Shown here: piece after piece, positions 29,619 to 50,438 of the stretch
Layout of the letters: every line of letters begins with the position of its first letter
Position numbering within the stretch: position 1 is the first letter of the stretch
DNA from: an uncultured Nitrospirota bacterium
GTDB taxonomy: Bacteria; CG2-30-53-67
Length of the DNA stretch: 64,000 nucleotides
Assembly (NCBI GenBank): GCA_945786985.1
Contig: CALZGC010000039.1
Location: 495 to 64,494, forward strand
Direction: 5' to 3'
Made by a program: the position numbers and the translations under genes
The notes under the pieces: generated by a model
The model's input: the letters and a program-made list of their open reading frames with translations, nothing else
The model's database searches: none
Told to the model about the DNA's origin: nothing

Positions 29619-29996
29619 GTGCATAAAAACATCCTGGTCGTTGATGATGAGAAGCTTGTCCGGTGGACCATCCAGCAATCCATGGGGAAACAGAATGTCC
29701 GAGTGGTCTCCGCTGCAACCGGGGCGGAAGCCATGGAGAAGCTCCGGGAAGAACGTTTTGACATCATCATCACCGACTACGTCATGCCCGGGTTCAATGG
29801 CATTGAAGTGGCTCGCCGGGCCCGCCTGCTTCAGCCGGAGAGCAAGATTATCATGATTACAGCCCACGAAATGATTCTGGACCGGGATGAGGCGGACCGG
29901 GCGGGCGTGAGCAGTATCATCAACAAGCCGTTCATGATCAGTGAGGTCAGAAACATCATCTCGGATCTCCTGTCGGAACAGAGAGACTCTGCATAA
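29619..29996 (+). CDS. single-domain response regulator (CheY-like)
   Basis: VVDDEKLVRW...IIITDYVMPG...phospho-Asp pocket. Its stop overlaps the start of the next gene (TAATG). Confidence 0.88.
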   Translation: MHKNILVVDDEKLVRWTIQQSMGKQNVRVVSAATGAEAMEKLREERFDIIITDYVMPGFNGIEVARRARLLQPESKIIMITAHEMILDRDEADRAGVSSIINKPFMISEVRNIISDLLSEQRDSA

Positions 29997-31348
29997 TGAT
30001 TCCTACGCGTATACTTTGTATCACAGCACTCTTGCTATGTCTTTACACACAACTGACCCTGGCGCCGGTGGAAGGGGCCGACGCGCTACCTCATGCCGGC
30101 CTGGCCGACGCCGCACCGGAGGTCTGCTTCAAATGCCACAAGGATCTTGCCACGCCCCCCGAAGGAGGCGTCGTGCATGCAGCCTTCGGAATGGGAGACT
30201 GTTCCATCTGCCATCTGCTGGGAGCGGACAACCGGTTCCAACTCATAGACACCGGCGCCGGCCTCTGTTACATGTGTCACGATGCGAAAAACACCCAGGC
30301 CAAGGTCCACAGCCCCGTAGCCTCAGGGGACTGCATCTTGTGTCACAATCCGCACCAGTCCCCCAACCCGAAGATGCTCATGGACTATCCGGTGAACAAG
30401 CTTTGCTTCAACTGCCACGATGAAGCGATGGCAAAGCATGCCTACGTCCATGTTCCCGTCTCAGAAGGGGAATGCACGAGCTGCCACGACCCCCATCAAT
30501 CGCCGCACGACAAACAGCTTCGGGAAGAGGGAAACAACCTATGCCTCATGTGTCATGCGGACAAAGAAGAGGATCTGAAGACCAAGAAACACGTGCATGA
30601 GGCCGTCGAAATGGTGGGGTGCACGGGCTGCCACAGTCCGCATGCCTCGGACACCAAATACCAGCTGCTCAGCGCACCCCCTGACCTCTGCTACACCTGC
30701 CACTCCGACAAAGAGGGGCCGGTGAAAACGCCGCACGGCGCCATCGAGATGAAAGGGAGCTGCGTCAACTGTCATGACCCCCATGCCTCCGACCATGAAG
30801 CACAATTAAAGGCTGCGGAAAACAAAGACCTCTGTCTCAAGTGTCACGATCGCAGGCGGAAGACAAAAAGCGGCTATATCCTCAACATGAAGGCCCATCT
30901 GGAAAAGAACCCGGAGCACCACGGGCCCATATTAATGGGAGACTGCGCGTCCTGCCACAACCCGCACGGCTCCGACGAATGGCGGATGCTGAAAAAACCT
31001 TTTCCGGCGGAGTTTTACGTCCCCTTTAAGCTGGAACGCTATGGCCTCTGTTTCGAATGCCATGACGAATCACTGGTTCTGGACGAGAACACGACGGCCA
31101 ACGGGTTCAGAAATGGCGAGATGAACCTGCATTTTGTCCACGTGAGCGATCCCCGTAAGGGTAGACGGTGCGTCGTCTGCCACGACGCCCATGCAGCCCA
31201 AGGACCGAAACATGTTCGGGAGACCGCCAAATTCGGGTCATGGGACCTTCCCATACGCCTCGAACTCCTGGAAGACGGCGGACGCTGTGCCCCCGGATGT
31301 CATCTCCCCCGGGCATACAACCGTAGCAAACCGGTAAAAAACAGGTGA
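29996..31348 (+). CDS. multihaem c-type cytochrome (14 CxxCH plus a C-terminal CxxxCH)
   Basis: Signal peptide. Motifs CFKCH, CSICH, CYMCH, CILCH, CFNCH, CTSCH, CLMCH, CTGCH, CYTCH, CVNCH, CLKCH, CASCH, CFECH, CVVCH, CAPGCH. Recurrent CxxCHxPHxS spacing typical of doubled-CXXCH/c7-type polymers. Confidence 0.9.
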   Translation: MIPTRILCITALLLCLYTQLTLAPVEGADALPHAGLADAAPEVCFKCHKDLATPPEGGVVHAAFGMGDCSICHLLGADNRFQLIDTGAGLCYMCHDAKNTQAKVHSPVASGDCILCHNPHQSPNPKMLMDYPVNKLCFNCHDEAMAKHAYVHVPVSEGECTSCHDPHQSPHDKQLREEGNNLCLMCHADKEEDLKTKKHVHEAVEMVGCTGCHSPHASDTKYQLLSAPPDLCYTCHSDKEGPVKTPHGAIEMKGSCVNCHDPHASDHEAQLKAAENKDLCLKCHDRRRKTKSGYILNMKAHLEKNPEHHGPILMGDCASCHNPHGSDEWRMLKKPFPAEFYVPFKLERYGLCFECHDESLVLDENTTANGFRNGEMNLHFVHVSDPRKGRRCVVCHDAHAAQGPKHVRETAKFGSWDLPIRLELLEDGGRCAPGCHLPRAYNRSKPVKNR

Positions 31349-31709: not shown

Positions 31710-32378
31710 GTGTACATCATGAAAAAAGTATCCGCTATCATCTTTGCCATCATTTTCGCAGCCATGACGGCGGGCGTTGCCGTCGCCGGCCCCGGACCTG
31801 GAACCGGGATTTCGGGATCCAAGCATGACCTCAGCGGCTTGGTCCCCGGAGAGGTCCAGCTCTGCATCTACTGCCATGCGCCCCACAACGGAACCGGAGC
31901 CGCAGGCGGCCTTCTCTGGAATCATTCGCCGTCGGCAGCAACCTACAATATGTATACCGAGGAGGCTGCGAGTGACCCCGCTTTCGCGAACTTCATCAAC
32001 GGCGCGCAGGATGCGGAGCCGACGGGCTCTGCAAAACTCTGCCTGAGCTGTCATGACGGCACGGTGGCCATCGACGCCTACGGTGGCGCTGCAGGGACGG
32101 TCAACATGACCGCCTTTCCCAACGCTAATCTGGGCCTCGACCTGTCGGACGACCACCCCATCTCCATCGTCTACGATGACGCGGCTGATCTCGGTCTGTT
32201 TCCGAAGGCCGCCGTCAACCTGGGTGCGGTGAATCTCACGGACATTCTCGAGAACGACAAAATCAACTGCGTGGCCTGCCACGATGTGCACAACTCTCCC
32301 GGAGAGACTGTGGACGCTCCCTTCGTCAGGGTGACCATGACCGGCAGTGCTCTCTGCCTGAGGTGCCACGACAAATAA
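31710..32378 (+). CDS. tetrahaem c-type cytochrome (doubled-CXXCH-type)
   Basis: Signal peptide. SKHDLS motif, then CIYCH, CLSCH, CVACH, CLRCH. Confidence 0.88.
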   Translation: MYIMKKVSAIIFAIIFAAMTAGVAVAGPGPGTGISGSKHDLSGLVPGEVQLCIYCHAPHNGTGAAGGLLWNHSPSAATYNMYTEEAASDPAFANFINGAQDAEPTGSAKLCLSCHDGTVAIDAYGGAAGTVNMTAFPNANLGLDLSDDHPISIVYDDAADLGLFPKAAVNLGAVNLTDILENDKINCVACHDVHNSPGETVDAPFVRVTMTGSALCLRCHDK

Positions 32379-32610: not shown

Positions 32611-32639
32611 TTGACACGTTTGAACCTGCATGATAAACT
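32611..32639 (+). promoter_or_regulatory. candidate sigma-70-type promoter for the NHL-lipoprotein operon
   Basis: TTGACA-N17-TAAACT, ~80 nt upstream of ATG 32716. Confidence 0.3.
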
Positions 32640-32715
32640 TGAATATATTCAAAAGGTTAGCTTGTCAGGAAAGTGCCCAGATCTTTCAGCATCATTCCAA
32701 TTGGAGACAGAGAAG

Positions 32716-35169
32716 ATGATGGCTTCGTATGCAAGGAACGCCGCGTGCCGACGAATCGTACTCACCAGCCTCCTTGGCTGCTGTATGTCGCTATTCCTGG
32801 GGATAGGCTGTGCCCCTGTGCAGAAGAAACTGGGCACCAGTTTCTACCCGCCGCCGCCGCAGCCGCCCAAGATACAGTTTCTCGCACGCGTCGCTTCATC
32901 CAAGGATGTGGTACCGACGAAGCGATTTCAGAGCTTTGTCATCGGTGAGGAGCCGCCCAACCGCTTCATCAAGCCCTACGGTGTGGAGGCGCAGAACGGC
33001 ATCATCTATGTCTGCGATATGCGGCGCGCCGCCGTCGCAGAGATCGATATCGTCGACCACAAGTTCCAGTGGCTGCGCAACGAAGGCGCCGGAAAACTTC
33101 GAAAGCCGATCAACCTCGCGGTCGACAAGGACGGGACGAAATATGTGGCCGATGTCGCCCTCGGCCAGGTCATGGTTTACGACAAAGCCAATCGCTTCAA
33201 GAAAGCCTTCGGCACGGAAGGTCAGTTCAAGCCGGTGGATGTGGCGGTCTTCGAGGAGAGGCTCTACGTTCTCGATATCCAAGACCATCAAGTGGAGATC
33301 CTGAACAAGAACACCGGCGCCGTTGTAGGAACCATCGGCAGCCCCGCCTTGGAGGAGGGGCAGCTCGCAAAGCCGTCAAACATCTATCTAGACAAGGACG
33401 GCAATATCTATGTCACGAACACGCTGAACTGCCGCATCGAGAAATATGATGATCAAGGCAATCACCTGCTCTCCGTGGGTGAGTGCGGGGATGCGATCGG
33501 CTCTTTCATCCGGCCCAAGGGCGTTGCCGTCGACGACAAAGGTTTCATCTATGTCGTCGATGCGGCCTTTGAAAACGTGCAGATCTTCTCGCCCCAGGGG
33601 GAAACCGCTCTTTTCTTCGGCGGTCCAGGCGATGCCTCTGTCCCGGGAGCGCTCTGGCTCCCGGCCTCCATGGATATTACTTATGACAAGAGTCTGATCG
33701 CCTCCCTGAATGAAGTCCGCAACCCGGATTTTGATATCGAGTATCTGATTCTCGTCATGAGTCAGTTCGGTCCCCCCTACCTGAACATTTATGGATTTGG
33801 TGAACCTCGGGCGGCGTCACCTCTGGCCAGAGGCGACGCGGACGCCTACGAGCCTGAAACGGGCAAGCTCGAATCCGCCTCCGTACCGAGGGAGGTGGTA
33901 CCGGAAGAACCGGTCACACGAGCAACGGAAGAGGAAGCGGCACCCGAAAAGCTGGAGCCGCCCCCAACGGCGCTCGACAAGCCGGAAGTTGCCGCCGTCT
34001 CCAGCCCGTCCGCAGTGGATCAGGCGCCGGCCGTTGAACCGACCCGGCCTCCGGAGCCGAACGAAACAGATAAAGAAGAGAAGGAACTCGTTTCACTGAT
34101 CGAACATTGGAGAAACTGCTGGGATACCCTGGACTTCAATTGTTACATTGATCATTACGGCAGCGAATTCAAACACGGCAAGATGGATCTCGCCGGGTGG
34201 CGAGCTTACAAACGCTCCATTTTCAGGGAAAAGAAGCCCGTCGAGGTACAACTGGAGGACATCCGGATCTCCGGATCGGGGTCGAACCGGCGGGCGCGCT
34301 TCATGCAGACCTTTCGCTCCGGTCGGCTCAGCGACTACGGAGAGAAGGCGCTGACCCTAAGCCGGGAAGGAAACACCTGGAAGATCATCGGAGAAGAGTG
34401 GACAGCCGCCGAAAAAGTCGCGAAGGCGACCGTACCCGAAGCCGGCGATGCAAACCGTTCTGAGATTCTGAGTTTCATCGAGGGGTGGAGAAACTGCTGG
34501 GAAAGCTTGGACTTCAATTGCTACATCGATCATTACGGCAGCGGATTCAAACACGGCAAGATGGATCTCGCCGAGTGGCGAACCCATAAACGCTCCGTTT
34601 TCAAGAAAAAGAAGCGCGTAGAGGTTCAACTGGAGGACATCCGGATCTCCGGATCGGGATCGAACCGGCGGGCGCGCTTCATGCAGACCTTTCGCTCCGG
34701 TCGGCTCAGCGACTACGGAGAGAAGTTACTGACCCTCCGTCGAGAAGGCGACGCTTGGAAGATCATCGCAGAGAAGTGGACAGCCGCGGAAAGAGTCGCG
34801 AAGCCGACCGTACCCGAAGCTGGCGATGCAGACAGTTCTGAGATTCTGAGCTTCATCGAGGGGTGGAAGAACTGCTGGGAGTCTCTTGATTTCGACTGCT
34901 ATATGGAATATTACGGACAGGGCTTTCGGCATCATAAGATGGGCCTGGCTGATTGGAAAGATCACCGGCGCGGCGTCTTCTCCCGACAGAAGAACGTCCG
35001 TCTCACGTTCGAGGACATGGAGATCTCCGGGTTCGGATCAGATCGCAACATCCGTTTCCTGCAGACCTTCCAATCGGGACGATACACCGATTTCGGTGAA
35101 AAAAGATTGACCCTTCGCAAGGAAGGAGAAATCTGGAAGATCATCCGGGAAGAATGGAAGGCCCGGTGA
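32716..35169 (+). CDS. NHL-repeat beta-propeller lipoprotein with a Pro/Glu-rich linker and three tandem copies of an uncharacterised ~126-aa domain
   Basis: Lipobox LFLGIGC. Six YVxD-type NHL blades (IIYVCD, KYVADV, LYVLD, IYVTN, IYVVDA...). Linker. Three repeats: ILSFIEGWRNCWESLDFNCYIDHYGSGFKHGKMDLAEW...SGRLSDYGEK...WKII. Confidence 0.85.
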   Translation: MMASYARNAACRRIVLTSLLGCCMSLFLGIGCAPVQKKLGTSFYPPPPQPPKIQFLARVASSKDVVPTKRFQSFVIGEEPPNRFIKPYGVEAQNGIIYVCDMRRAAVAEIDIVDHKFQWLRNEGAGKLRKPINLAVDKDGTKYVADVALGQVMVYDKANRFKKAFGTEGQFKPVDVAVFEERLYVLDIQDHQVEILNKNTGAVVGTIGSPALEEGQLAKPSNIYLDKDGNIYVTNTLNCRIEKYDDQGNHLLSVGECGDAIGSFIRPKGVAVDDKGFIYVVDAAFENVQIFSPQGETALFFGGPGDASVPGALWLPASMDITYDKSLIASLNEVRNPDFDIEYLILVMSQFGPPYLNIYGFGEPRAASPLARGDADAYEPETGKLESASVPREVVPEEPVTRATEEEAAPEKLEPPPTALDKPEVAAVSSPSAVDQAPAVEPTRPPEPNETDKEEKELVSLIEHWRNCWDTLDFNCYIDHYGSEFKHGKMDLAGWRAYKRSIFREKKPVEVQLEDIRISGSGSNRRARFMQTFRSGRLSDYGEKALTLSREGNTWKIIGEEWTAAEKVAKATVPEAGDANRSEILSFIEGWRNCWESLDFNCYIDHYGSGFKHGKMDLAEWRTHKRSVFKKKKRVEVQLEDIRISGSGSNRRARFMQTFRSGRLSDYGEKLLTLRREGDAWKIIAEKWTAAERVAKPTVPEAGDADSSEILSFIEGWKNCWESLDFDCYMEYYGQGFRHHKMGLADWKDHRRGVFSRQKNVRLTFEDMEISGFGSDRNIRFLQTFQSGRYTDFGEKRLTLRKEGEIWKIIREEWKAR
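34084..35166 (+). repeat. three tandem 378-bp coding repeats (about 98% DNA identity between copies 1 and 2)
   Basis: An approximately 100-bp stretch CTGGAGGACATCCGGATCTCCGGATCGGG(G/A)TCGAACCGGCGGGCGCGCTTCATGCAGACCTTTCGCTCCGGTCGGCTCAGCGACTACGGAGAGAAG recurs at ~34252 and ~34630 with a single internal mismatch (period 378). Confidence 0.9.
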
Positions 35170-42438: not shown

Positions 42439-42477
42439 CTCGTAATAGATTGACTCATGCAATAGACGGGCTAGTAC
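42439..42477. repeat. MITE-like element, copy C (solo terminal inverted repeat, opposite orientation)
   Basis: CGTAATAGATTGACTCATGCAATAGACGGGCTAGTAC is the reverse-complement of the ATTGCATGAGTNAATCTATTACG terminus (22/23) and matches the flanking CCCGG-CTAG motif of copy B's 3' end. Confidence 0.5.
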
Positions 42478-43001
42478 TTGTCTGTATGGCAGGCAATGCA
42501 AAGCTCCGTGGAGGAGTGCCCCACGGTCAGTTCCCTCGAGGCGGTGCACTCTGCAGCGGGATCCAGCGCCATGGCCGCCGTCTGCATCCCGGTCGACAGA
42601 TCACTCTTAAGTCTGTGACAGGAAACGCAGCTCACCTTCCCATCAACCAGACGGATATTCTTGTCCAGCAGCAGCCTCGGCCGATACCCCCTTGGGTCCC
42701 GCATGGCATAGTGATCATAGGACATGCCCACCGGATGATTGACCGTCCGGGATCCGCTTATCTGGAAAGGGGCGTCGGCATCTTTCAATGAGATACTTGT
42801 TGCTGTGGCCCCATTGTGGCATCCCAGGCAGTCACTCGCCGTACTGTCAGGAGGTACTGCAGCCGCACTGACGGCGAAGGCTTGCACATCGGCACCGAAC
42901 ACGAAGTTCCTGAACATCTCAGAGAGGCTTCCCGCCACCGCTGTGCGCGGTGCAACACAAATCAGAGAAAAGACCATCAGGAGTGTACAAAACCTCTGCA
43001 T
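42471..43001 (-). CDS. trihaem c-type cytochrome
   Basis: Signal peptide MQRFCTLLMVFSLICVAPRTAVAG. CLGCH, CVSCH, CIACH. Confidence 0.8.
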   Translation of the reverse strand: MQRFCTLLMVFSLICVAPRTAVAGSLSEMFRNFVFGADVQAFAVSAAAVPPDSTASDCLGCHNGATATSISLKDADAPFQISGSRTVNHPVGMSYDHYAMRDPRGYRPRLLLDKNIRLVDGKVSCVSCHRLKSDLSTGMQTAAMALDPAAECTASRELTVGHSSTELCIACHTDKY

Positions 43002-43490
43002 AGCCAACCCTCCTCCTGTCATGCCCGAGGGGCAATTACCACACGGTATCGGTTCTAAAAGAATGGATTGAAAAAGAGGATGGGCCGCCGACGTCAGAGA
43101 GCCTGCCTGAAGACCCATACGTTCATCCGTCTCTTCGGCAGCCCCTCTACCATCACCTTGCGGCCCCAGGCAGGTGGCTTTGCGTCCGATCCCTTTCGGG
43201 AAAGGTTGCCTTTGTCACAAAACTAATCAGTACATCGGGAGAAAGGCAAAATACTTTAGAATAAACTGGTTCCCCCGATGGGTCTGGCCGGCTTGCGAAC
43301 GTATTCGGTGGCAAACCTGACCTCTCCACGAAGCCTTTCTAATGTTCTTACCACTGAATCCTTTGGCCCGCAACCGATGGGCGGACAAGATCTGCACCAT
43401 GGCGTCCGGCATGGCCGCCGACCTTTTCGCACGGGCCAGTGTGGGAAAAACATTGTGTTTCTATCATAACCTAAGAACTTGTTTATGCGG

Positions 43491-43552: not shown

Positions 43553-45688
43553 TCAGGGTTGCGGTAACCATGAATTGTCATGCACGTGACAGTCGGTGCA
43601 ATCTTGACCATCAAAGTGGGCGGGCGCGTCCCCATTGTATCGATGGAAAAGGGTCTGGGTATGGCAGGTCTCACAGATATTCTCATTGAAGGGCGGCCCA
43701 TCGGCAAAAGAGCCCTCTCCTTCCCGACTCGTGAAAACAATCAGACTGCCGTCGATGACACTCTGGTCCGTGGTCTCTCGCACCGCCTTAATGTTGTCCC
43801 CGACCTCGAACATAGGGTTGTGACAATCGACACACCCAACCTCGTAGTTGTATTTCCCGGTGCCACTGACAGCGCTGGTGTGGGGCTTTCGTGTCCCGTG
43901 GCACTTCATGCACTCTTCACTCGGGATCTTGGCAGAAAAAATGAGATTGTCACTTACATCCTCCACGTGACAGAACCCGCAGTTGCTATTGAAAAAGTTT
44001 GTGTTGTGCGGCGGCTGTGCCTGTCCCGCCGTAGGCAGAAATCCATCACGATGGAGGTGACACTGGGTGCACTGCTGGCCATCGAAGTGCGACTGACCGC
44101 CCGGTGCGGTGCCGTCGCTCTGATGATGATTGGTCCGGGTGTGGCAGGTCTCGCAGATGTTCTCCTCATGGGGCGGACCGTCCGCAAAGGAGCCTATCCC
44201 CGTGGGGGCCGTAAACTGCACAAAGTTCTGTATGGACGCGCCCGTGGCCTCGTTGTCAAAACAGATCGTCCGCCGGACATACTGCCCATAGGTGGTTCCA
44301 AACTTATTGTTCTGCTCCTGGGTGTGCGGATTGTGGCAGGTCACACAGTCGGCGCCCCAGTTCCCGTATTTGCTCCCCACGACGTCGGTCCCGTGGGTCC
44401 GAACGTTGGGGGCCGAGCCGAATCCGAACGGATAGGACTCGGGATACTGGACCTTGAATATCCCGTTGAGTGGATCCGAGGTATCTTCCGGGTCCGCGTG
44501 GCACCGCTGGCACTGATACCGCAAATCGTTGAAGAAATCATTTAGATCGTGGCATTTCCCGCAGAAGAGTTCAGTGTTGTCGGGGTGCACAGAGCCATCC
44601 GGGTTGAGCAGCAGCCCGAAATGGGGCGTATCCCGGGGCGTGGTCACGGTCTCGCAGCTCGGCCCACCGCAGTCGTCAACATCCGTCTCGTCAGCCAAGT
44701 TGTCACAGTCGTTGTCGATCCCGTCGTCACAGACCTCCAGAAAGCCGGGGCTGCGGTTGGGGTCGGCGTCGTCACAGTCTGGTGCGCACTTGGCCGCCCC
44801 GTCGCCATCGGCGTCGACATCCGTTGAGAAGTCGGCCCGACCGTCACAGTTGCTGTCCTTGCCGTCACAGATTTTTGGGGCACCGGGAAAGACCTGGGGG
44901 TCCGTGTCATCACAGTCGACGGGACCGCAGACACCGCCCAACGTGGAAAAACCGTCCCCGTCGGTGTCGGCCCCGGCGCAGGCCTCGCAATCGGGGTCGG
45001 AGATACAGGTTGCGTCATCACAGTCGATCGACCCGTCGCAGTTATTGTCGATACCGTCCGTACAGAACTCCGCGGCCGCTGGATTCACAGCAGCATTGGT
45101 ATCGTCACAGTCGGTACCGCCGCAGAAAGAAGCCGTATCACCGTCGCCGTCGGCGTCGGGGCAGATACATCCGGCTTCGTCCGTTGTGCCATCACAGTTG
45201 TTATCCTTGCCGTCGCCGCAGAGCTCGCTGGCCCCCGGATTCACCGTGGCACTGAAGTCATCGCAATCACCCGGCGTGTCGCAAATCTTAAATCCGTCTC
45301 CGTCGCTATCGCGCTCCTCCGCGGGCATGCCGGACGTACAATCGTTGTCCTTGCCGTCACAGATTTCGGAATTCCCGGGAAAGCGGGCCGGATCGCTGTC
45401 ATCGCAGTCGCCCGCGCACCGCGGCACACCGTCGCCGTCAGCGTCGACGTCGGTGCCGAAAGTCCGACCGTCGCAATTGGTGTCTCTCCCGTCGCAGATC
45501 TCGGGCACCCCTGGTCGAATATCGGGATCCGTATCGTCACAGTCGGGGCCCACACAGTCAATACCGCTCCCGTATCCGTCCCCGTCATTGTCCACGCATT
45601 GGGCCTGAACGTTGGAGCTGCCCAGGATCAACAGAACTCCCAGCAAGACAGATAAGAACATCCCCATCGGGCACTTCTTGGAAATCAT
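43553..45688 (-). CDS. secreted 10-haem c-type cytochrome with N-terminal Myxococcus-type putative metal-binding motif repeats (Asp/Cys-rich, Ca-binding-like)
   Basis: Signal peptide. More than five DADGDG...DCDD...PG..E.CDG.DN.CDG repeats. Then CGKCH, CQRCH, CVTCH, CETCH, CTQCH, CGFCH, CMKCH, CVDCH, CETCH, CTDCH. Confidence 0.88.
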   Translation of the reverse strand: MISKKCPMGMFLSVLLGVLLILGSSNVQAQCVDNDGDGYGSGIDCVGPDCDDTDPDIRPGVPEICDGRDTNCDGRTFGTDVDADGDGVPRCAGDCDDSDPARFPGNSEICDGKDNDCTSGMPAEERDSDGDGFKICDTPGDCDDFSATVNPGASELCGDGKDNNCDGTTDEAGCICPDADGDGDTASFCGGTDCDDTNAAVNPAAAEFCTDGIDNNCDGSIDCDDATCISDPDCEACAGADTDGDGFSTLGGVCGPVDCDDTDPQVFPGAPKICDGKDSNCDGRADFSTDVDADGDGAAKCAPDCDDADPNRSPGFLEVCDDGIDNDCDNLADETDVDDCGGPSCETVTTPRDTPHFGLLLNPDGSVHPDNTELFCGKCHDLNDFFNDLRYQCQRCHADPEDTSDPLNGIFKVQYPESYPFGFGSAPNVRTHGTDVVGSKYGNWGADCVTCHNPHTQEQNNKFGTTYGQYVRRTICFDNEATGASIQNFVQFTAPTGIGSFADGPPHEENICETCHTRTNHHQSDGTAPGGQSHFDGQQCTQCHLHRDGFLPTAGQAQPPHNTNFFNSNCGFCHVEDVSDNLIFSAKIPSEECMKCHGTRKPHTSAVSGTGKYNYEVGCVDCHNPMFEVGDNIKAVRETTDQSVIDGSLIVFTSREGEGSFADGPPFNENICETCHTQTLFHRYNGDAPAHFDGQDCTDCHVHDNSWLPQP

Positions 45689-45757
45689 GGCTCGGCCTCC
45701 ATTCCAAACGGCGGGTGATCATTTTGTAGATCAAATGGCTCCCTTAGGAAGGTATTG

Positions 45758-45786
45758 AATATAACACAGAATGAAAGTTTTTTCAA
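45758..45786 (-). promoter_or_regulatory. candidate sigma-70 promoter with extended −10 for the 43553..45688 cytochrome
   Basis: Minus strand TTGAAA-N17-TGTTATATT, ~65 nt upstream of the start codon. Confidence 0.4.
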
Positions 45787-45915
45787 AAGATTCTGAAGAA
45801 ATCTCGCCAAGGAAATGCGAAAATTAAGACGTTTCGTTAGGCGTTCAGACGCTCAGAGGAAATAAGAGCGAAAAGTCAAACTTACAGAAGACAAAAATGG
45901 CAGCAGGATGGAGGC

Positions 45916-46103
45916 CCTTAACCCGGAGATTGCATGAGTAAATCTATTACGAGGCTGGATAGTCTGCCACATGCGGCGTTACAGAAGATCTTCTGACTTC
46001 AATATGTTTACAGCCAGAAGATCTTTTGCGCCCTGCCTGTAGCGCATCCAAAACCTCTGGGGCCTCTCATGACGATCAACTCATGCAATATCCGGGCTAA
46101 GTG
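45916..46103. repeat. MITE-like element, copy B (full length ~188 bp, ~27-bp terminal inverted repeats)
   Basis: 5' CCTTAACCCGGAGATTGCATGAGTAAATCTATTACGAGGC ... 3' CAACTCATGCAATATCCGGGCTAAGTG. The termini are reverse-complements of each other. Confidence 0.6.
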
Positions 46104-46202
46104 CCCAAACAATAAACCGCGCTACTCTGTGATCGAAGCGTTGTGCACCGACAGAGGAGGATCAACCAAATCGAAACCACTGACTGTCACCAATTCATGA
46201 TG

Positions 46203-46233
46203 CAAAATCCCGGGCCACAAGGCGTGGCCCGGG
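46203..46233 (-). terminator. candidate Rho-independent terminator
   Basis: Minus-strand perfect 10-bp stem CCCGGGCCAC-GCCUU-GUGGCCCGGG followed by AUUUUG. Confidence 0.45.
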
Positions 46234-46263
46234 ATCTTCAGTATAACCGCTGCGCTTCAAGTT

Positions 46264-46524
46264 TTAAAACGAGCTTGCTCCATGTCCGTGGCAGTTTCCG
46301 GCCATACAACCGGTACTTTTGTTACCTCCCATTTGATCGGGATGGCAGGTTGAGCAGAAAGACCGGCCGTTTGTCGTTGCGTCACTGTTACTCTGTGAGA
46401 CATCAAGGACCCTGACGAGATCGGGGTCTTCACCTGGAATCGACCAATCCGGCGTGAGCGGCGTCGATCCGTTTTTGGAGTAGATAATCGGCTTCAAATT
46501 GGCCAGGTTTGTGTAAACCATACC
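46264..46524 (-). CDS. small Cys/His-rich ORF (86 aa) with strong RBS; possibly the C-terminal remnant of a cytochrome gene
   Basis: GGAGGTG-N6-ATG. MVYTNLANLKPIIY...SFCSTCHPDQMGGNKSTGCMAGNCHGHGASSF. No signal peptide. The C-terminal G.C...CHG resembles the C-termini of the 14- and 12-haem cytochromes. Confidence 0.3.
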   Translation of the reverse strand, partial: GMVYTNLANLKPIIYSKNGSTPLTPDWSIPGEDPDLVRVLDVSQSNSDATTNGRSFCSTCHPDQMGGNKSTGCMAGNCHGHGASSF

Positions 46525-46562
46525 ATTCACCTCCGCCCGTGTCCGGCATTGTGGCAGTCGCT

Positions 46563-47122
46563 TCACGCAAGGACATCACCCTGTTGGTATCCGCTCCCGG
46601 GCTGCAGACTGACCTGCCGACTCGCATCAGCTGGACCGTGCTGGTCGCCTTTGCCGTCGGTCCAAGCCGTGCAGATATCTGTGAGCGCCTGCGTTGGCGG
46701 CGTGACACTTGCCGGGTATGAGTTGTCATGACAATCGAGGCAGAACTCCGTCATGCTCGCCGGCACCCGACCGTCGTCCGGGTCGGGATCGGCCAAAAAG
46801 ATCCACCGCATGCGGACTGTGGCAATCGGTACACTCGATCTTCGCTCCGCTGCAGACCATATCCGCATAAGAGACATCGTGATGGGTATTCCGATCCGCT
46901 CCGGAGCGGGATACCATGGTTTCTGTGCCGGCAAAGAGGAACTGAATGTCCTGAGCCGGCGCGCCATCATGGCACCCAAAAGAGAGCTCTTCTTCTCCGT
47001 TGGCAACGGGTGCACCCGCCACCGTCCCCGAGAGGAAGGGCGGGTGCTATCGGTTCCGCCGTGACAGTACGGGCAGTTCCCTTCCAGGGCTTCCAACCGA
47101 CGGTGGTGCTCGGTCAGTGCCT
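46563..47122 (-). pseudogene. 5'-truncated, frameshifted remnant of a tetrahaem (31710-type) cytochrome paralogue
   Basis: Haem-motif segments in the same order as the 4-haem protein are split over two frames: NCPYCHGG (frame A), LSFGCHDG with the first Cys lost and ECTDCHSPHA (frame B), EFCLDCHD (frame A). There is no signal peptide and no room for one before the upstream gene's stop at 47123. Confidence 0.45.
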
Positions 47123-49891
47123 CTACTGCTCGTGGCACGTGGTGCAGTCGCGGAAGTCCTCGAGAATGTACGCCCCCAGGTCAGGATCCCACACGAAACT
47201 GTGGCAGTTCAGGCAGTCGTAGGTGGCATCCGGCACTCCGTCGCCGTTCGCATCAGGTTTCGGCACGATACTGTCCGGTATGATTGGCGTTCCCACGCGC
47301 TGGTGGTGCAGGTTGGGTATCGACGCACTGGTGAGGAGAAAGCCCTCCGAATGAGGATGACAGGTTGTACAAGTATTGCCGTCTAAGTGACTCTGCCCAC
47401 CGGGCGCCGTCCCATCTGACTGATGGTGGTTCGTGGCGCTGTGGCAGGTTTCACAGACATTCTCCTCGTGAGGCGGTCCGTCCGCAAAGGACCCCGGCCC
47501 GGAACGTGCCGTGAAGTCAATAACGCTGCCCGGAATGACGCTTCCCGGAACCGTCGATCTGACCAGTTTCAAGTTCGTCTGTTCAAACATCGGGTTATGG
47601 CAGTCGACACACTGGTTGGTATAGCTATAAGTGCCCGACCCGTTCACATCGCTGTGCGTCAGGACATTCGGCGCCGCCGGGAAGCCGTCTTTGAGGACGC
47701 CCGTTGGCGCATGACACTGCTCGCACTTGGAATCGGGAATGGGAGAACTGAAATCTGAAGTGCTGACGTGACAGTAATCACAGTTGTTCAGAAACTCCTG
47801 CGTGTCGTGCGGGGCCGCCGGTGTACCTCCTGTCGGTGCGAACCCATCGGCATGGGAATGACAGGCGGTGCAGGCAAGTCCGTTATTGTGATCCTGCCCA
47901 CCCGGTGCCGTCCCATCGCTCTGTTGGTGGTTGGTACGGGTATGGCAGGTATTGCAAATGTTCTCATCGTAAGGCGCGCCATCGGCAAAGGAGCCCGGCC
48001 CTGTGGGCGCGGTGAACTCCACAAAATTCTCCACCGACCCGCCCGTCGTCTGATTATCGAAACAGATGGTCCGTTTGATCAGCTTGCCGTAGGTGGTGCC
48101 GAACTTGTTGTTCTGCTCCTGGGTATGGGGGTTATGGCAGTTCACGCAGTCCGCCCCCCAGGTGCCATATTTGTTCCCGAGGATCCCCGATGAGTGGGTC
48201 ACGACATTCGCAGCCGAGCCGAACCCGAACGGATAAGCATCGGGGTACTGGGCTTTGAGGACACCGTTGAGCGGATCGGAGGTATCGTTCGGATCGGCGT
48301 GACACCGCTGGCACTGATAGCGGGTGTCATCGAGAAAATTGGTCAGATTGTGGCACTTGCCGCAGAACAGCGCATTGTTGTCCGGATGAATCGTGCCGTC
48401 CGGATTGAGAAGCTGACCCAGATGGGGCTCATCCCTCGGCGTGGTCACTGTACCACAGGTCGGAGGACCGCAGTCTTCTAAATCCGCCGCATCGGTCAGG
48501 TTGTCGCAATCGTTGTCGATCCCGTCGGTGCAGACTTCCAGATTGTCAGGATAGCGCTTCGGATTATTGTCATCACAGTCGGAGGCGCAGCGGGCCACCC
48601 CGTCGCCGTCTGCATCGACATCGGAGGAGAAATCGAGCCGGCTGTCACAATTGTTGTCTTTACCATCGCAGATGCGAAGCGCACCGGGGTAGACAGTCGG
48701 ATCGGTGTCGTCACAATCTCCGGCAGCCACGGCCACTCCGTCACCATCATTGTCACCTGCGACCGCGACGCAACTACTGTCCGCTGCATCGGTCATGCCG
48801 TCAAAGTCATTGTTGCAACCGTCACTGCAGGTCGGACTCCCCACCGGCCCTTCCAGCCCGATGAGGGAAGCGCCCACACAGTCACCGTTGGAGCAGGTGT
48901 CGCCGCTCGTACACGGGTCGCTGTCGTCGCACGCGCCGATGGCAAAGGTACAGTCGTTGTTGCAGCAAAGACCGCCGTCGCACTGCTCATCGGCCTCCAC
49001 GATGCCGTTGCCGCAAACGCCGACCGCATCACACCTGTCCGTAGCTTCGTTACAAGTCGTGCCGCCGGTACAGGGGTCGCCGGCAGAAACACAGGCGCCC
49101 GAGCCGTTGCAGCTCTCCGTGCCGTCACAGAAAACTCCGTTGGAACTGCAGGCCGTAGCGGTGCTCGAAAAAGTGCAGTCCGGATCGCAGCACTCGCCGC
49201 CATCACACTGCTCGCCGGTCTCCACGGTCCCGTTGCCACAAACGGCGCCCGTATCGCAGGTATCGGTCGATTCGATACAGTTCGTCCCGCCCGGACAGGG
49301 GTTGCCGGCGGAAACACAGCCGCCCGAGCCGTTGCAGCTCTCCGCGCCGTCACAGAAAAGACCGTTGTCCGTGCAGGCCATGCTGGGCATGGCAAAGGTA
49401 CAGTTGCTATTACAGCAAACGCCCCCATCACACTGCTCGCCACTCTCGACAATCCCGTTTCCGCACACCGGACCGCCGCCACCGACGCAGCCCCCCAGAT
49501 CCGCTGTGTCGACCCGGCGGTCGCAATCGTTGTCTTGGCCGTCGTCGCAGATCTCCTGATTGCCGGGAAAGTTTGACGCGTCGTTGTCATCGCAGTCCCC
49601 CCCACATCGCGGCACGCCGTCGCCGTCGGCATCCACATCGGTGCGGAAATCAAGGCGACCGTCGCAGTTAGTGTCGAGGCCGTCGCAGATACGGATCGCA
49701 CCCGGAAAGACGTTGGCGTTTGTGTCGTCGCAATCGACACCCGGGTTGGGACAGTCCGCTGCTCCGGCAACCCCGTAATCGTCGCCGTCAGCATCCACGC
49801 AGGCCGTCGCCGTGGGACTCGCCAGCGCAACGACCAGAAAACTAAAGAAAAAAACCGATAGGAAGGTTTTTAACGACCGTGTCTCTCTCAT
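47123..49891 (-). CDS. secreted 12-haem c-type cytochrome with putative metal-binding motif repeats and three Myxococcus cysteine-rich repeats (CGNGxVExGEQCDGG)
   Basis: Start MRETRSL after a GGAGGGG RBS; signal peptide. DADGDG/DCDD repeats at both ends of the N-region. Three ~75-aa CGNG...EQCDGG repeats. Twelve CxxCH. About 75% identical to the 43553 paralogue across the haem region. Confidence 0.88.
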   Translation of the reverse strand: MRETRSLKTFLSVFFFSFLVVALASPTATACVDADGDDYGVAGAADCPNPGVDCDDTNANVFPGAIRICDGLDTNCDGRLDFRTDVDADGDGVPRCGGDCDDNDASNFPGNQEICDDGQDNDCDRRVDTADLGGCVGGGGPVCGNGIVESGEQCDGGVCCNSNCTFAMPSMACTDNGLFCDGAESCNGSGGCVSAGNPCPGGTNCIESTDTCDTGAVCGNGTVETGEQCDGGECCDPDCTFSSTATACSSNGVFCDGTESCNGSGACVSAGDPCTGGTTCNEATDRCDAVGVCGNGIVEADEQCDGGLCCNNDCTFAIGACDDSDPCTSGDTCSNGDCVGASLIGLEGPVGSPTCSDGCNNDFDGMTDAADSSCVAVAGDNDGDGVAVAAGDCDDTDPTVYPGALRICDGKDNNCDSRLDFSSDVDADGDGVARCASDCDDNNPKRYPDNLEVCTDGIDNDCDNLTDAADLEDCGPPTCGTVTTPRDEPHLGQLLNPDGTIHPDNNALFCGKCHNLTNFLDDTRYQCQRCHADPNDTSDPLNGVLKAQYPDAYPFGFGSAANVVTHSSGILGNKYGTWGADCVNCHNPHTQEQNNKFGTTYGKLIKRTICFDNQTTGGSVENFVEFTAPTGPGSFADGAPYDENICNTCHTRTNHQQSDGTAPGGQDHNNGLACTACHSHADGFAPTGGTPAAPHDTQEFLNNCDYCHVSTSDFSSPIPDSKCEQCHAPTGVLKDGFPAAPNVLTHSDVNGSGTYSYTNQCVDCHNPMFEQTNLKLVRSTVPGSVIPGSVIDFTARSGPGSFADGPPHEENVCETCHSATNHHQSDGTAPGGQSHLDGNTCTTCHPHSEGFLLTSASIPNLHHQRVGTPIIPDSIVPKPDANGDGVPDATYDCLNCHSFVWDPDLGAYILEDFRDCTTCHEQ
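48860..49466 (-). repeat. tandem ~225-bp coding repeats (Myxococcus cysteine-rich repeat units) inside the giant cytochrome gene
   Basis: Near-identical DNA at ~49060–49150 and ~49290–49380 (…GCCGTTGCAGCTCTCCG(T/C)GCCGTCACAGAAAA…). The antisense ORF 48705..49559 displays the periodicity. Confidence 0.7.
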
Positions 49892-49980
49892 GGCCCCTCC
49901 AGAGATTAAGATGATGTGATGAATGCCTCGTATCCTCATATTTTCGAGCCGTTTCAGAAGCCAAACAAGCCAAAAAATAC

Positions 49981-49996
49981 GCAATATGCATGCCAC
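49981..49996 (-). promoter_or_regulatory. sigma-54 (−24/−12) promoter for the 12-haem giant cytochrome
   Basis: Minus strand TGGCATGCATATTGC (TGGCA-N6-TTGC, canonical spacing), ~75 nt upstream of the start at 49891. Confidence 0.55.
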
Positions 49997-50438
49997 AGGA
50001 TGACAATCCGACCTATCGCTTTTCGTGAATATTTCCATATAGTTACCTGCGGACGCGTCCGCTATTGTCGGGAGGAGTCTCTATCTTCACGCTAAATGAC
50101 TCAATAAAAGGGTTTAATAACATATTTTAGACGATTATTGGGTTAATTGAGTGTAACTAACGCGCAATTATATCATAATAGACGTATAAATGAAGTCTGT
50201 GTGCTATGCACGACTTTTATTTGCTCCAGATAACCGAATAGAAGAAGCAACGGCAGCGAACTGGCCATTCTTCCGTCTCGGAGTGCACCGTGACAGCCGA
50301 CACGTCTTCCCGGTCAGGGCTCAGGGTCGCCAGGGCCGTTCCAGCCTATCTGAAGGAGCGGAAAATAAATGTGCCTACAAAATTTCGCTTTGCAATGGGC
50401 GGTCTCCGGTCTATACTGCGTATTTTTGGGAGACCTTC

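Follow-up and report, generated by a model that had tools for sequence, protein, structure and literature searches.

A frame-broken remnant between two giant multihaem cytochrome genes, very probably the severed C-terminal module of the upstream gene

Among the described systems that bear on the locus reported here, the OmcE-type tetrahaem nanowire cytochromes (PDB 7TFS, 9YUQ) are free-standing, secreted proteins of ~220-230 aa, whereas the four corresponding haem motifs of our locus are internal to a seven-motif module. The same module ends cytochromes of 600-700 aa, so far uncharacterised, from Gemmatimonadota, Acidobacteriota and other phyla, and it is likewise the C-terminal end of a multihaem cytochrome encoded in a Thermodesulfovibrionia MAG (CAMYNN010000019.1; 1171 aa, 29 CXXCH motifs), referred to below as locus L006 and protein P0013; no curated family covering the module was found. 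Multihaem selenoproteins occur in related taxa, and in MccSep, which belongs to a different family, the selenocysteine residue sits in the peptide ...HSIPDGUPTPNR, outside any CXXCH haem-binding motif (PMC13510729).

The interval considered here, 46264-47122 on the minus strand of the window (by which we mean the whole 64-kb stretch of DNA that was analysed), comprises ~860 bases between two giant cytochrome genes. The upstream gene (47123..50038, minus strand) is a 971-aa ORF with MopE-type Cys-rich repeats and cytochrome c7/c3-like regions, and its true start is likely at 49891, which would give a protein of 922 aa with the signal peptide MRETRSLKTFLSVFFFSFLVVALASPTATA. The downstream paralogue (43553..45688, minus strand) is a 711-aa MopE-repeat cytochrome, also with cytochrome c7/c3-like regions, that ends right past its last body unit and has no module. 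A reading of this DNA from sequence alone had taken these giants to be 14- and 12-haem proteins, but a regular expression finds 12 and 10 canonical CXXCH motifs, respectively. Among homologues of the giant cytochromes, many bear the label Nitrospirae or Nitrospirota. Based on the data below, we concluded with high confidence that the interval is a single non-functional, decayed and frame-broken remnant, and that it is very probably the former 3' end of the ancestor of the upstream 971-aa gene, lost by way of an old TAG; it is an ordinary pseudogene remnant, with no separate small gene in it.

Three-frame translation of 47200-46150 returned the haem-motif segments in order and alternating between two minus-strand frames, as the sequence-only reading had described for the first four: CPYCH (47075-47061) in the first frame, SFGCH (46983-46969) and CTDCH (46833-46819) in the second, and CLDCH (46742-46728) in the first again. 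That reading was also right that the second motif has lost its first Cys, a haem Cys of LCFACH now replaced by a Ser codon at 46983-46981, and that there is no N-terminal signal peptide; we found no start codon either. In the fifth motif the codon of the first Cys, near-invariant in the C.DCH motif of homologues, is a TGA (46565-46563), leaving a stop followed by SDCH. Motifs six and seven are CSTCH and a CX4CH (CMAGNCH), and the last part, again in the second frame, runs to ...CSTCHPDQMGGNKSTGCMAGNCHGHGASSF-TAA. Joined conceptually across four frame changes (~47121, ~47038, ~46797 and ~46534 on the ancestral path), the minus strand provides about 285 codons with seven haem motifs.

Between these breaks the remnant consists of four segments. 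Segment 1 (47040..47120, ALTEHHRRLEALEGNCPYCHGGTDSTR) contains CPYCH and is followed by the frameshift at ~47038, where ~16 codons are missing, the conserved NAHG among them. Segment 2 (46798..47037) holds LSFGCH, an HHDV motif and CTDCH, and segment 3 (46536..46796), reached through a 1-nt frameshift at ~46797, holds FCLDCH, with a 9-codon deletion ahead of it, and the interrupted fifth motif. Segment 4 (46264..46533), after the frameshift at ~46534, is the module tail with motifs six and seven, and at its far end the native stop is kept (TAA 46266-46264).

The conceptual join (~283 aa) matched intact proteins at E values down to 1e-86; for nine metagenomic proteins the values were 8e-86 to 3e-17, the best matches being 54-55% identical and the query coverage mostly 80-94%; several of the "proteins" in this first search were mis-called C-terminal parts of longer ORFs. 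Against the C-terminal modules of long cytochromes the remnant was 54-67% identical across the whole interval, and a frameshift-aware dynamic-programming alignment with L006/P0013 gave 61% identity over 375 aa. Scans of the genome and metagenome collections yielded 58 and 47 related loci, and no module relative above ~60% identity was found in either. For the 72 best-matching of the related loci from the two scans, the module formed the extreme C-terminal end of an open frame of 600-1900 aa in 66, with at most 16 residues after it, and the full-length module proteins had N-terminal signal peptides and 11-29 CXXCH motifs.

An HMM of the module was built from the C-terminal regions of homologous loci and run on the window. 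Its matches on the minus strand were colinear and in alternating frames, at 47093-47031 (HMM positions 199-219), 47034-46801 (229-306), 46799-46533 (311-409) and 46533-46273 (404-485), and no second copy of the module part covering HMM positions 229-485 was detected by the HMM elsewhere in the 64-kb window. Because these matches reached E values of 1e-23 to 1e-33, in addition to that of the conceptual join, the similarity is, judged on its scores, far beyond chance. The series of the module, from C.ACHGG to GC..G.CH.HG..SF-stop, is present with all seven haem motifs in order, the first Cys being destroyed in two of them, and the Pfam family Paired_CXXCH_1 was recovered only across the second frameshift junction of the remnant.

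The link to the upstream gene comes from the junction between the two. The last 71 codons of the 971-aa ORF (47126..47338, minus strand; LLTSASIPNLHH...DCLNCH...FRDCTTCHEQ) are absent from the 711-aa paralogue and form the proximal part of an element that is split by the stop. In the intact proteins P0094, P0097 and P0110 one frame leads from the 971-type extension straight into the post-stop element. Residues 70-159 of P0097 aligned to the C-terminal 70 aa of the 971 protein plus the post-stop segment with 66% identity over 90 aa (E 8e-36), and the post-stop 30 aa alone aligned with 79% identity over 19 aa (E 4e-9). The truncating lesion (47121..47125, minus strand) comprises a TAG (47125-47123), at a position where P0094 and P0097 have Q or N, and an adjacent 1-nt loss, the old frame being taken up again after only 2 nt (47122-47121). 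Since P0094, P0097 and P0110 read through this point in one frame, we regard the TAG and the 1-nt loss as truncating lesions in a longer ancestral ORF. These now cut the module from the 971-aa ORF, and a long secreted ORF would have existed only in the ancestor.

The same junction is found in relatives. P0016 and P0018 (537 aa) share the extension and the stop of the 971 protein, and the post-stop DNA of their contigs (L116 and L115) is homologous to the window for ~70 nt. Over window positions 47122-47053 the identity was 87% for L116 and 77% for L115, compared with 84% and 72% for the coding end, and all three loci have the TAG and 2 nt followed by the frame ...LTEHHRR.... Because the TAG and the frameshift are common to the window, L115 and L116, the truncation predates the split of three lineages; on this comparison of contigs it is old and no sequencing error, and the gene has clearly long worked in its short form.

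Taken alone, the ending of P0016 and P0018 at the 971 stop looks like a native C-terminus, and the extension has no significant similarity to the linker that precedes the module in L006. Both points would favour an explanation in which the 971 stop is native and a separate long cytochrome gene lay downstream of it, reduced to its 3' fragment, the remnant, by deletion of its 5' part. We nevertheless consider this improbable. The shared post-stop remnant reconciles the common stop with a truncation, L115 and L116 having the same TAG and 2-nt structure as the window, while P0094, P0097 and P0110 join the extension and the post-stop element in a single frame at the E values given above, and the 5 nt between the two parts leave no room for a start codon, a ribosome-binding site and a signal peptide. 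No intact protein combining a 971-type extension with an L006-type module was found.

A further candidate, in which the C-terminal 70 aa of the 971 protein are a degenerate L006-type linker, was dropped: three methods gave three registers, and ~0.5-1% of composition shuffles scored as well. No linker homology was found in other frames. The N-terminal ~160 aa of P0094, P0097 and P0110 contain the three- to four-haem element of the 971 extension and are followed by unrelated Cys-rich and beta-rich regions; the element looks like a mobile unit common to otherwise different cytochromes.

Very unlikely, in our judgement, is that the organism has an intact gene whose frame changes are errors of sequencing or assembly. 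The contig is metagenome-assembled and the 1-nt shift at ~46797 lies in a T5 run, and the sequence-only reading had offered two sequencing frameshifts as an alternative, on which correcting one or two homopolymer errors would bring back an unbroken ORF complete with signal peptide. No such correction restores the gene, and that alternative was rejected: there are four frame changes, and repairing the frame still leaves the TAG, the TGA at a haem Cys, the Cys-to-Ser substitution and the deletions of ~16 and 9 codons at conserved positions. The first lesion, moreover, is present in three separate assemblies; the lesions further inside (at 47038, 46797, 46534 and, for the TGA, 46565) were seen only in this one. 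The rest of the window, including the flanking paralogous ORFs of 2.9 kb and 2.1 kb, has no comparable breaks. The sequence at 46753-47064, where an antisense ORF spans two of the frameshift sites, is identical on two contigs, which are possibly not independent.

The lesions have hit positions that are nearly invariant (C48, C184 and the HG of NAHG). Of the 58 columns with a conservation of 90% or more, the remnant deviates at 8; among 33 sequences only L001, whose gene is likewise frame-broken (upstream), deviates at more of them. Other module homologues are broken or truncated too: L001 (~650) has a deletion and a frameshift, with its DC.VCH motif gone, L005 (~895) has a 1-nt loss between PFSDGR and TPPDI, and L066 and L067 have unrelated sequence ahead of the module. 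These broken homologues could represent repeated module decay or metagenome assembly noise.

The sequence-only reading had instead seen two items in the interval, a broken stand-alone tetrahaem paralogue of the 31710 protein and, downstream of it, an 86-aa ORF with a strong ribosome-binding site, which might be expressed from that site. The first four motifs are indeed ordered as in the 31710 protein, an OmcE homologue (PDB 9YUQ, E 4e-21; 7TFS, E 2.8e-18; 10.1101/2025.10.22.684050), and the profiles show remote homology (hhalign probability 96% for the remnant against the 31710 protein, with a BLASTP E value of 1e-4; E 4.6e-5 for a profile comparison with 9YUQ). The identity to the 31710 protein is 26%, however, against 54-67% to the seven-motif C-terminal modules, which span both items continuously, so the assignment to a 31710-type paralogue is given up. 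A free-standing OmcE-like protein is also not what the interval contains, which has no start codon or signal peptide and seven motifs, not four.

The small ATG ORF is there (46521-46264, minus strand; 85 aa, ending ...CSTCHPDQ...GCMAGNCHGHGASSF), as is the string GGAGGTG 7 nt upstream of its ATG at 46521. The string, on the other hand, is coding sequence that is conserved in L006: it encodes the conserved E-V-N, and intact L006 has GAC GAG GTG AAC at the same site. The N-terminus of the small ORF, MVYTNLANLKPIIYSK, is no signal peptide, and its proposed resemblance to the C-termini of the giants did not hold up, the BLASTP E values being 0.06 and 0.7. On these alignments the ORF is the last segment of the module and no independent gene, and we regard the two-item explanation as very unlikely as well.

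The 31710 protein itself is a 222-aa tetrahaem OmcE homologue (31710-32378, plus strand) with neighbours at 29996-31348 and 32611-35169. It is followed by an 852-aa ORF whose orthologue at locus L114 has NHL-repeat Pfam hits, fitting the beta-propeller component of omcE clusters. An OmcE-type nanowire locus may be present here, in what is probably a Nitrospirota MAG.

That the long protein is still made by recoding, with the TGA read as selenocysteine or with programmed ribosomal frameshifts or both, can be dismissed almost completely: although the TGA lies exactly at a Cys position and multihaem selenoproteins exist in related taxa, this Cys is a thioether-forming haem Cys that all homologues have as Cys, no SECIS-like hairpin follows the TGA (z = 0.22), the frameshifts lie ~230 nt upstream and ~30 nt downstream of it, the post-stop region has no stable, conserved or covarying RNA structure and 45500-47300 no Rfam match, and four frame changes, the TAG and the deletions at conserved sites would all have to be bypassed. 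Public gene calls include none on the correct strand in the remnant and place a 103-aa antisense "gene" at 46753-47064 (plus strand), which is almost certainly a spurious G+C-rich shadow ORF; none of the antisense ORFs (164, 128, 103, 90 and 70 aa) has a Pfam match.

The remnant is followed, ~30 nt past its stop, by a hairpin (46209..46233, minus strand) with a perfect 10-bp G+C-rich stem, CCCGGGCCAC-GCCUU-GUGGCCCGGG, and then AUUUUG. Its folding energy is -27.6 kcal/mol (z = -4.2), and it is probably the terminator of the ancestral full-length gene. A simple terminator scan misses it, probably since its T-run is only four T, and gave only chance-level matches inside the remnant. The spacer between the remnant and the 711-aa gene (45689-46263, 575 bp) has a much lower G+C content (47% versus 59%), and the best sigma-70-like promoter match, TTGAAA-17-TATATT (45786-45758), lies ahead of the 711 start. 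The 711-aa gene is followed immediately by a c-di-GMP-I riboswitch (43134-43220, minus strand; 59.8 bits, E 3e-9) and, directly after it, a small secreted cytochrome carrying three CXXCH motifs (42471-43118, minus strand).

The two relatives with the same truncation, L115 and L116, have lost most of the 711-like gene and of the remnant, together with the spacer. Relative to the arrangement in the window this corresponds to a deletion of ~3.4 kb with a breakpoint near the C..CHGG-coding motif; the jump of L116 into the 711-like tail and downstream DNA was supported at E 2e-8, and the tail of L115 is similar. At L116 3628-3830 and L115 3825-4010 the first ~70 nt of the remnant are fused to the last ~22 codons of the 711-like gene (...HLDSQNCTDCQNHDNSWLPEP, then a stop). 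L114 (1-1520; GCA_947259355.1) encodes a 715-aa protein that is orthologous to the 711-aa one and falls into one 90%-identity cluster with it; upstream there is a radical-SAM-like gene in place of the 971 gene and the remnant. From this arrangement, the left side of the locus differs between close relatives and the right side is syntenic.

We therefore return to the truncation of the 971 gene, for which the following history can be proposed. The ancestor of the 971-aa gene would have run on into a seven-haem C-terminal module, until the TAG at 47125-47123 and the adjacent 1-nt loss severed the reading frame, before the three lineages split. After the truncation the downstream DNA would have drifted without selection; slow decay of the module followed in one lineage and a large deletion in the other two. 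The truncated 971-aa protein would now be in use, as the module-less 711-aa paralogue would be, and transcription probably still covers the remnant, which would then form a long 3' untranslated region of the 971 mRNA up to the hairpin at 46233-46209. Attachment of c-type haem requires export (cytochrome c maturation). Because the remnant has no signal peptide, it would yield no functional cytochrome.

These results suggest that the 971-aa cytochrome be read as a truncated derivative minus its seven-haem C-terminal module, and that the interval be annotated as a pseudogene remnant and the public antisense 103-aa "gene" as spurious. The sequence-only reading had proposed birth-and-death evolution of cytochrome genes; gene death at a cytochrome-rich locus stands, but it very probably struck the tail of the 971 gene, not a small paralogue. 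The remnant is a clean case, and one that can be dated, of a domain being lost from giant multihaem cytochromes of probable Nitrospirota; it illustrates how haem number and architecture change in extracellular electron-transfer proteins, with no new mechanism.

It is also conceivable, though we think it unlikely, that dead cytochrome modules, rich in repeated CXXCH-coding motifs, persist as recombination substrates by which C-terminal haem modules are added, removed or swapped among tandem giant genes. The suggestion comes from the ~70 nt after the stop, which are conserved like the coding end and which are the same stretch as the breakpoint of the ~3.4-kb deletion in L115 and L116. If it were true, this recombination would be an ongoing mechanism of modular shuffling for extracellular electron-transfer proteins.

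Compared with known systems, the module of L006/P0013 matches the remnant motif for motif at 61-67% identity (C.ACHGGTDST, LCFACHDG, HHDV, IECTDCH, DPDPDDG, FCLDCHDN, DQHG, C.DCHN.GHG, IYSKDG, FCSTCHP and GCMAGNCHGHG.SSF-stop), and the repeat units of its body are like those of the 971 protein. Unlike the window locus, the L006 gene is intact, has no MopE repeats and has another linker between body and module (...RRQV.G.GGDFER.SHH...); the L006 locus is not syntenic with the window. The secreted, 630-730-aa cytochrome-like proteins P0094, P0097 and P0110 from metagenomes contain ...RHH.RVG...DCLNCH...FRDCTTCH...HHR..EALEGNC.YCHG in one frame, which is split in the window, and past C.YCHG they run into domains unrelated to the L006-type module. 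With the OmcE-type cytochromes the module has its first four motifs in the same order and with the same spacing logic, as a remote homologue. Like other bacterial pseudogene remnants, the one in the window has full-length homology to intact genes together with stops, frameshifts, deletions and loss of essential residues, and it lacks both a start codon and a signal peptide while retaining the original stop and terminator. Unlike the usual pseudogene remnant, its truncating lesion is common to at least three lineages and the 5' part of the gene survives as an uninterrupted ORF that appears functional, and because of this the event is one of domain loss, not of whole-gene loss.
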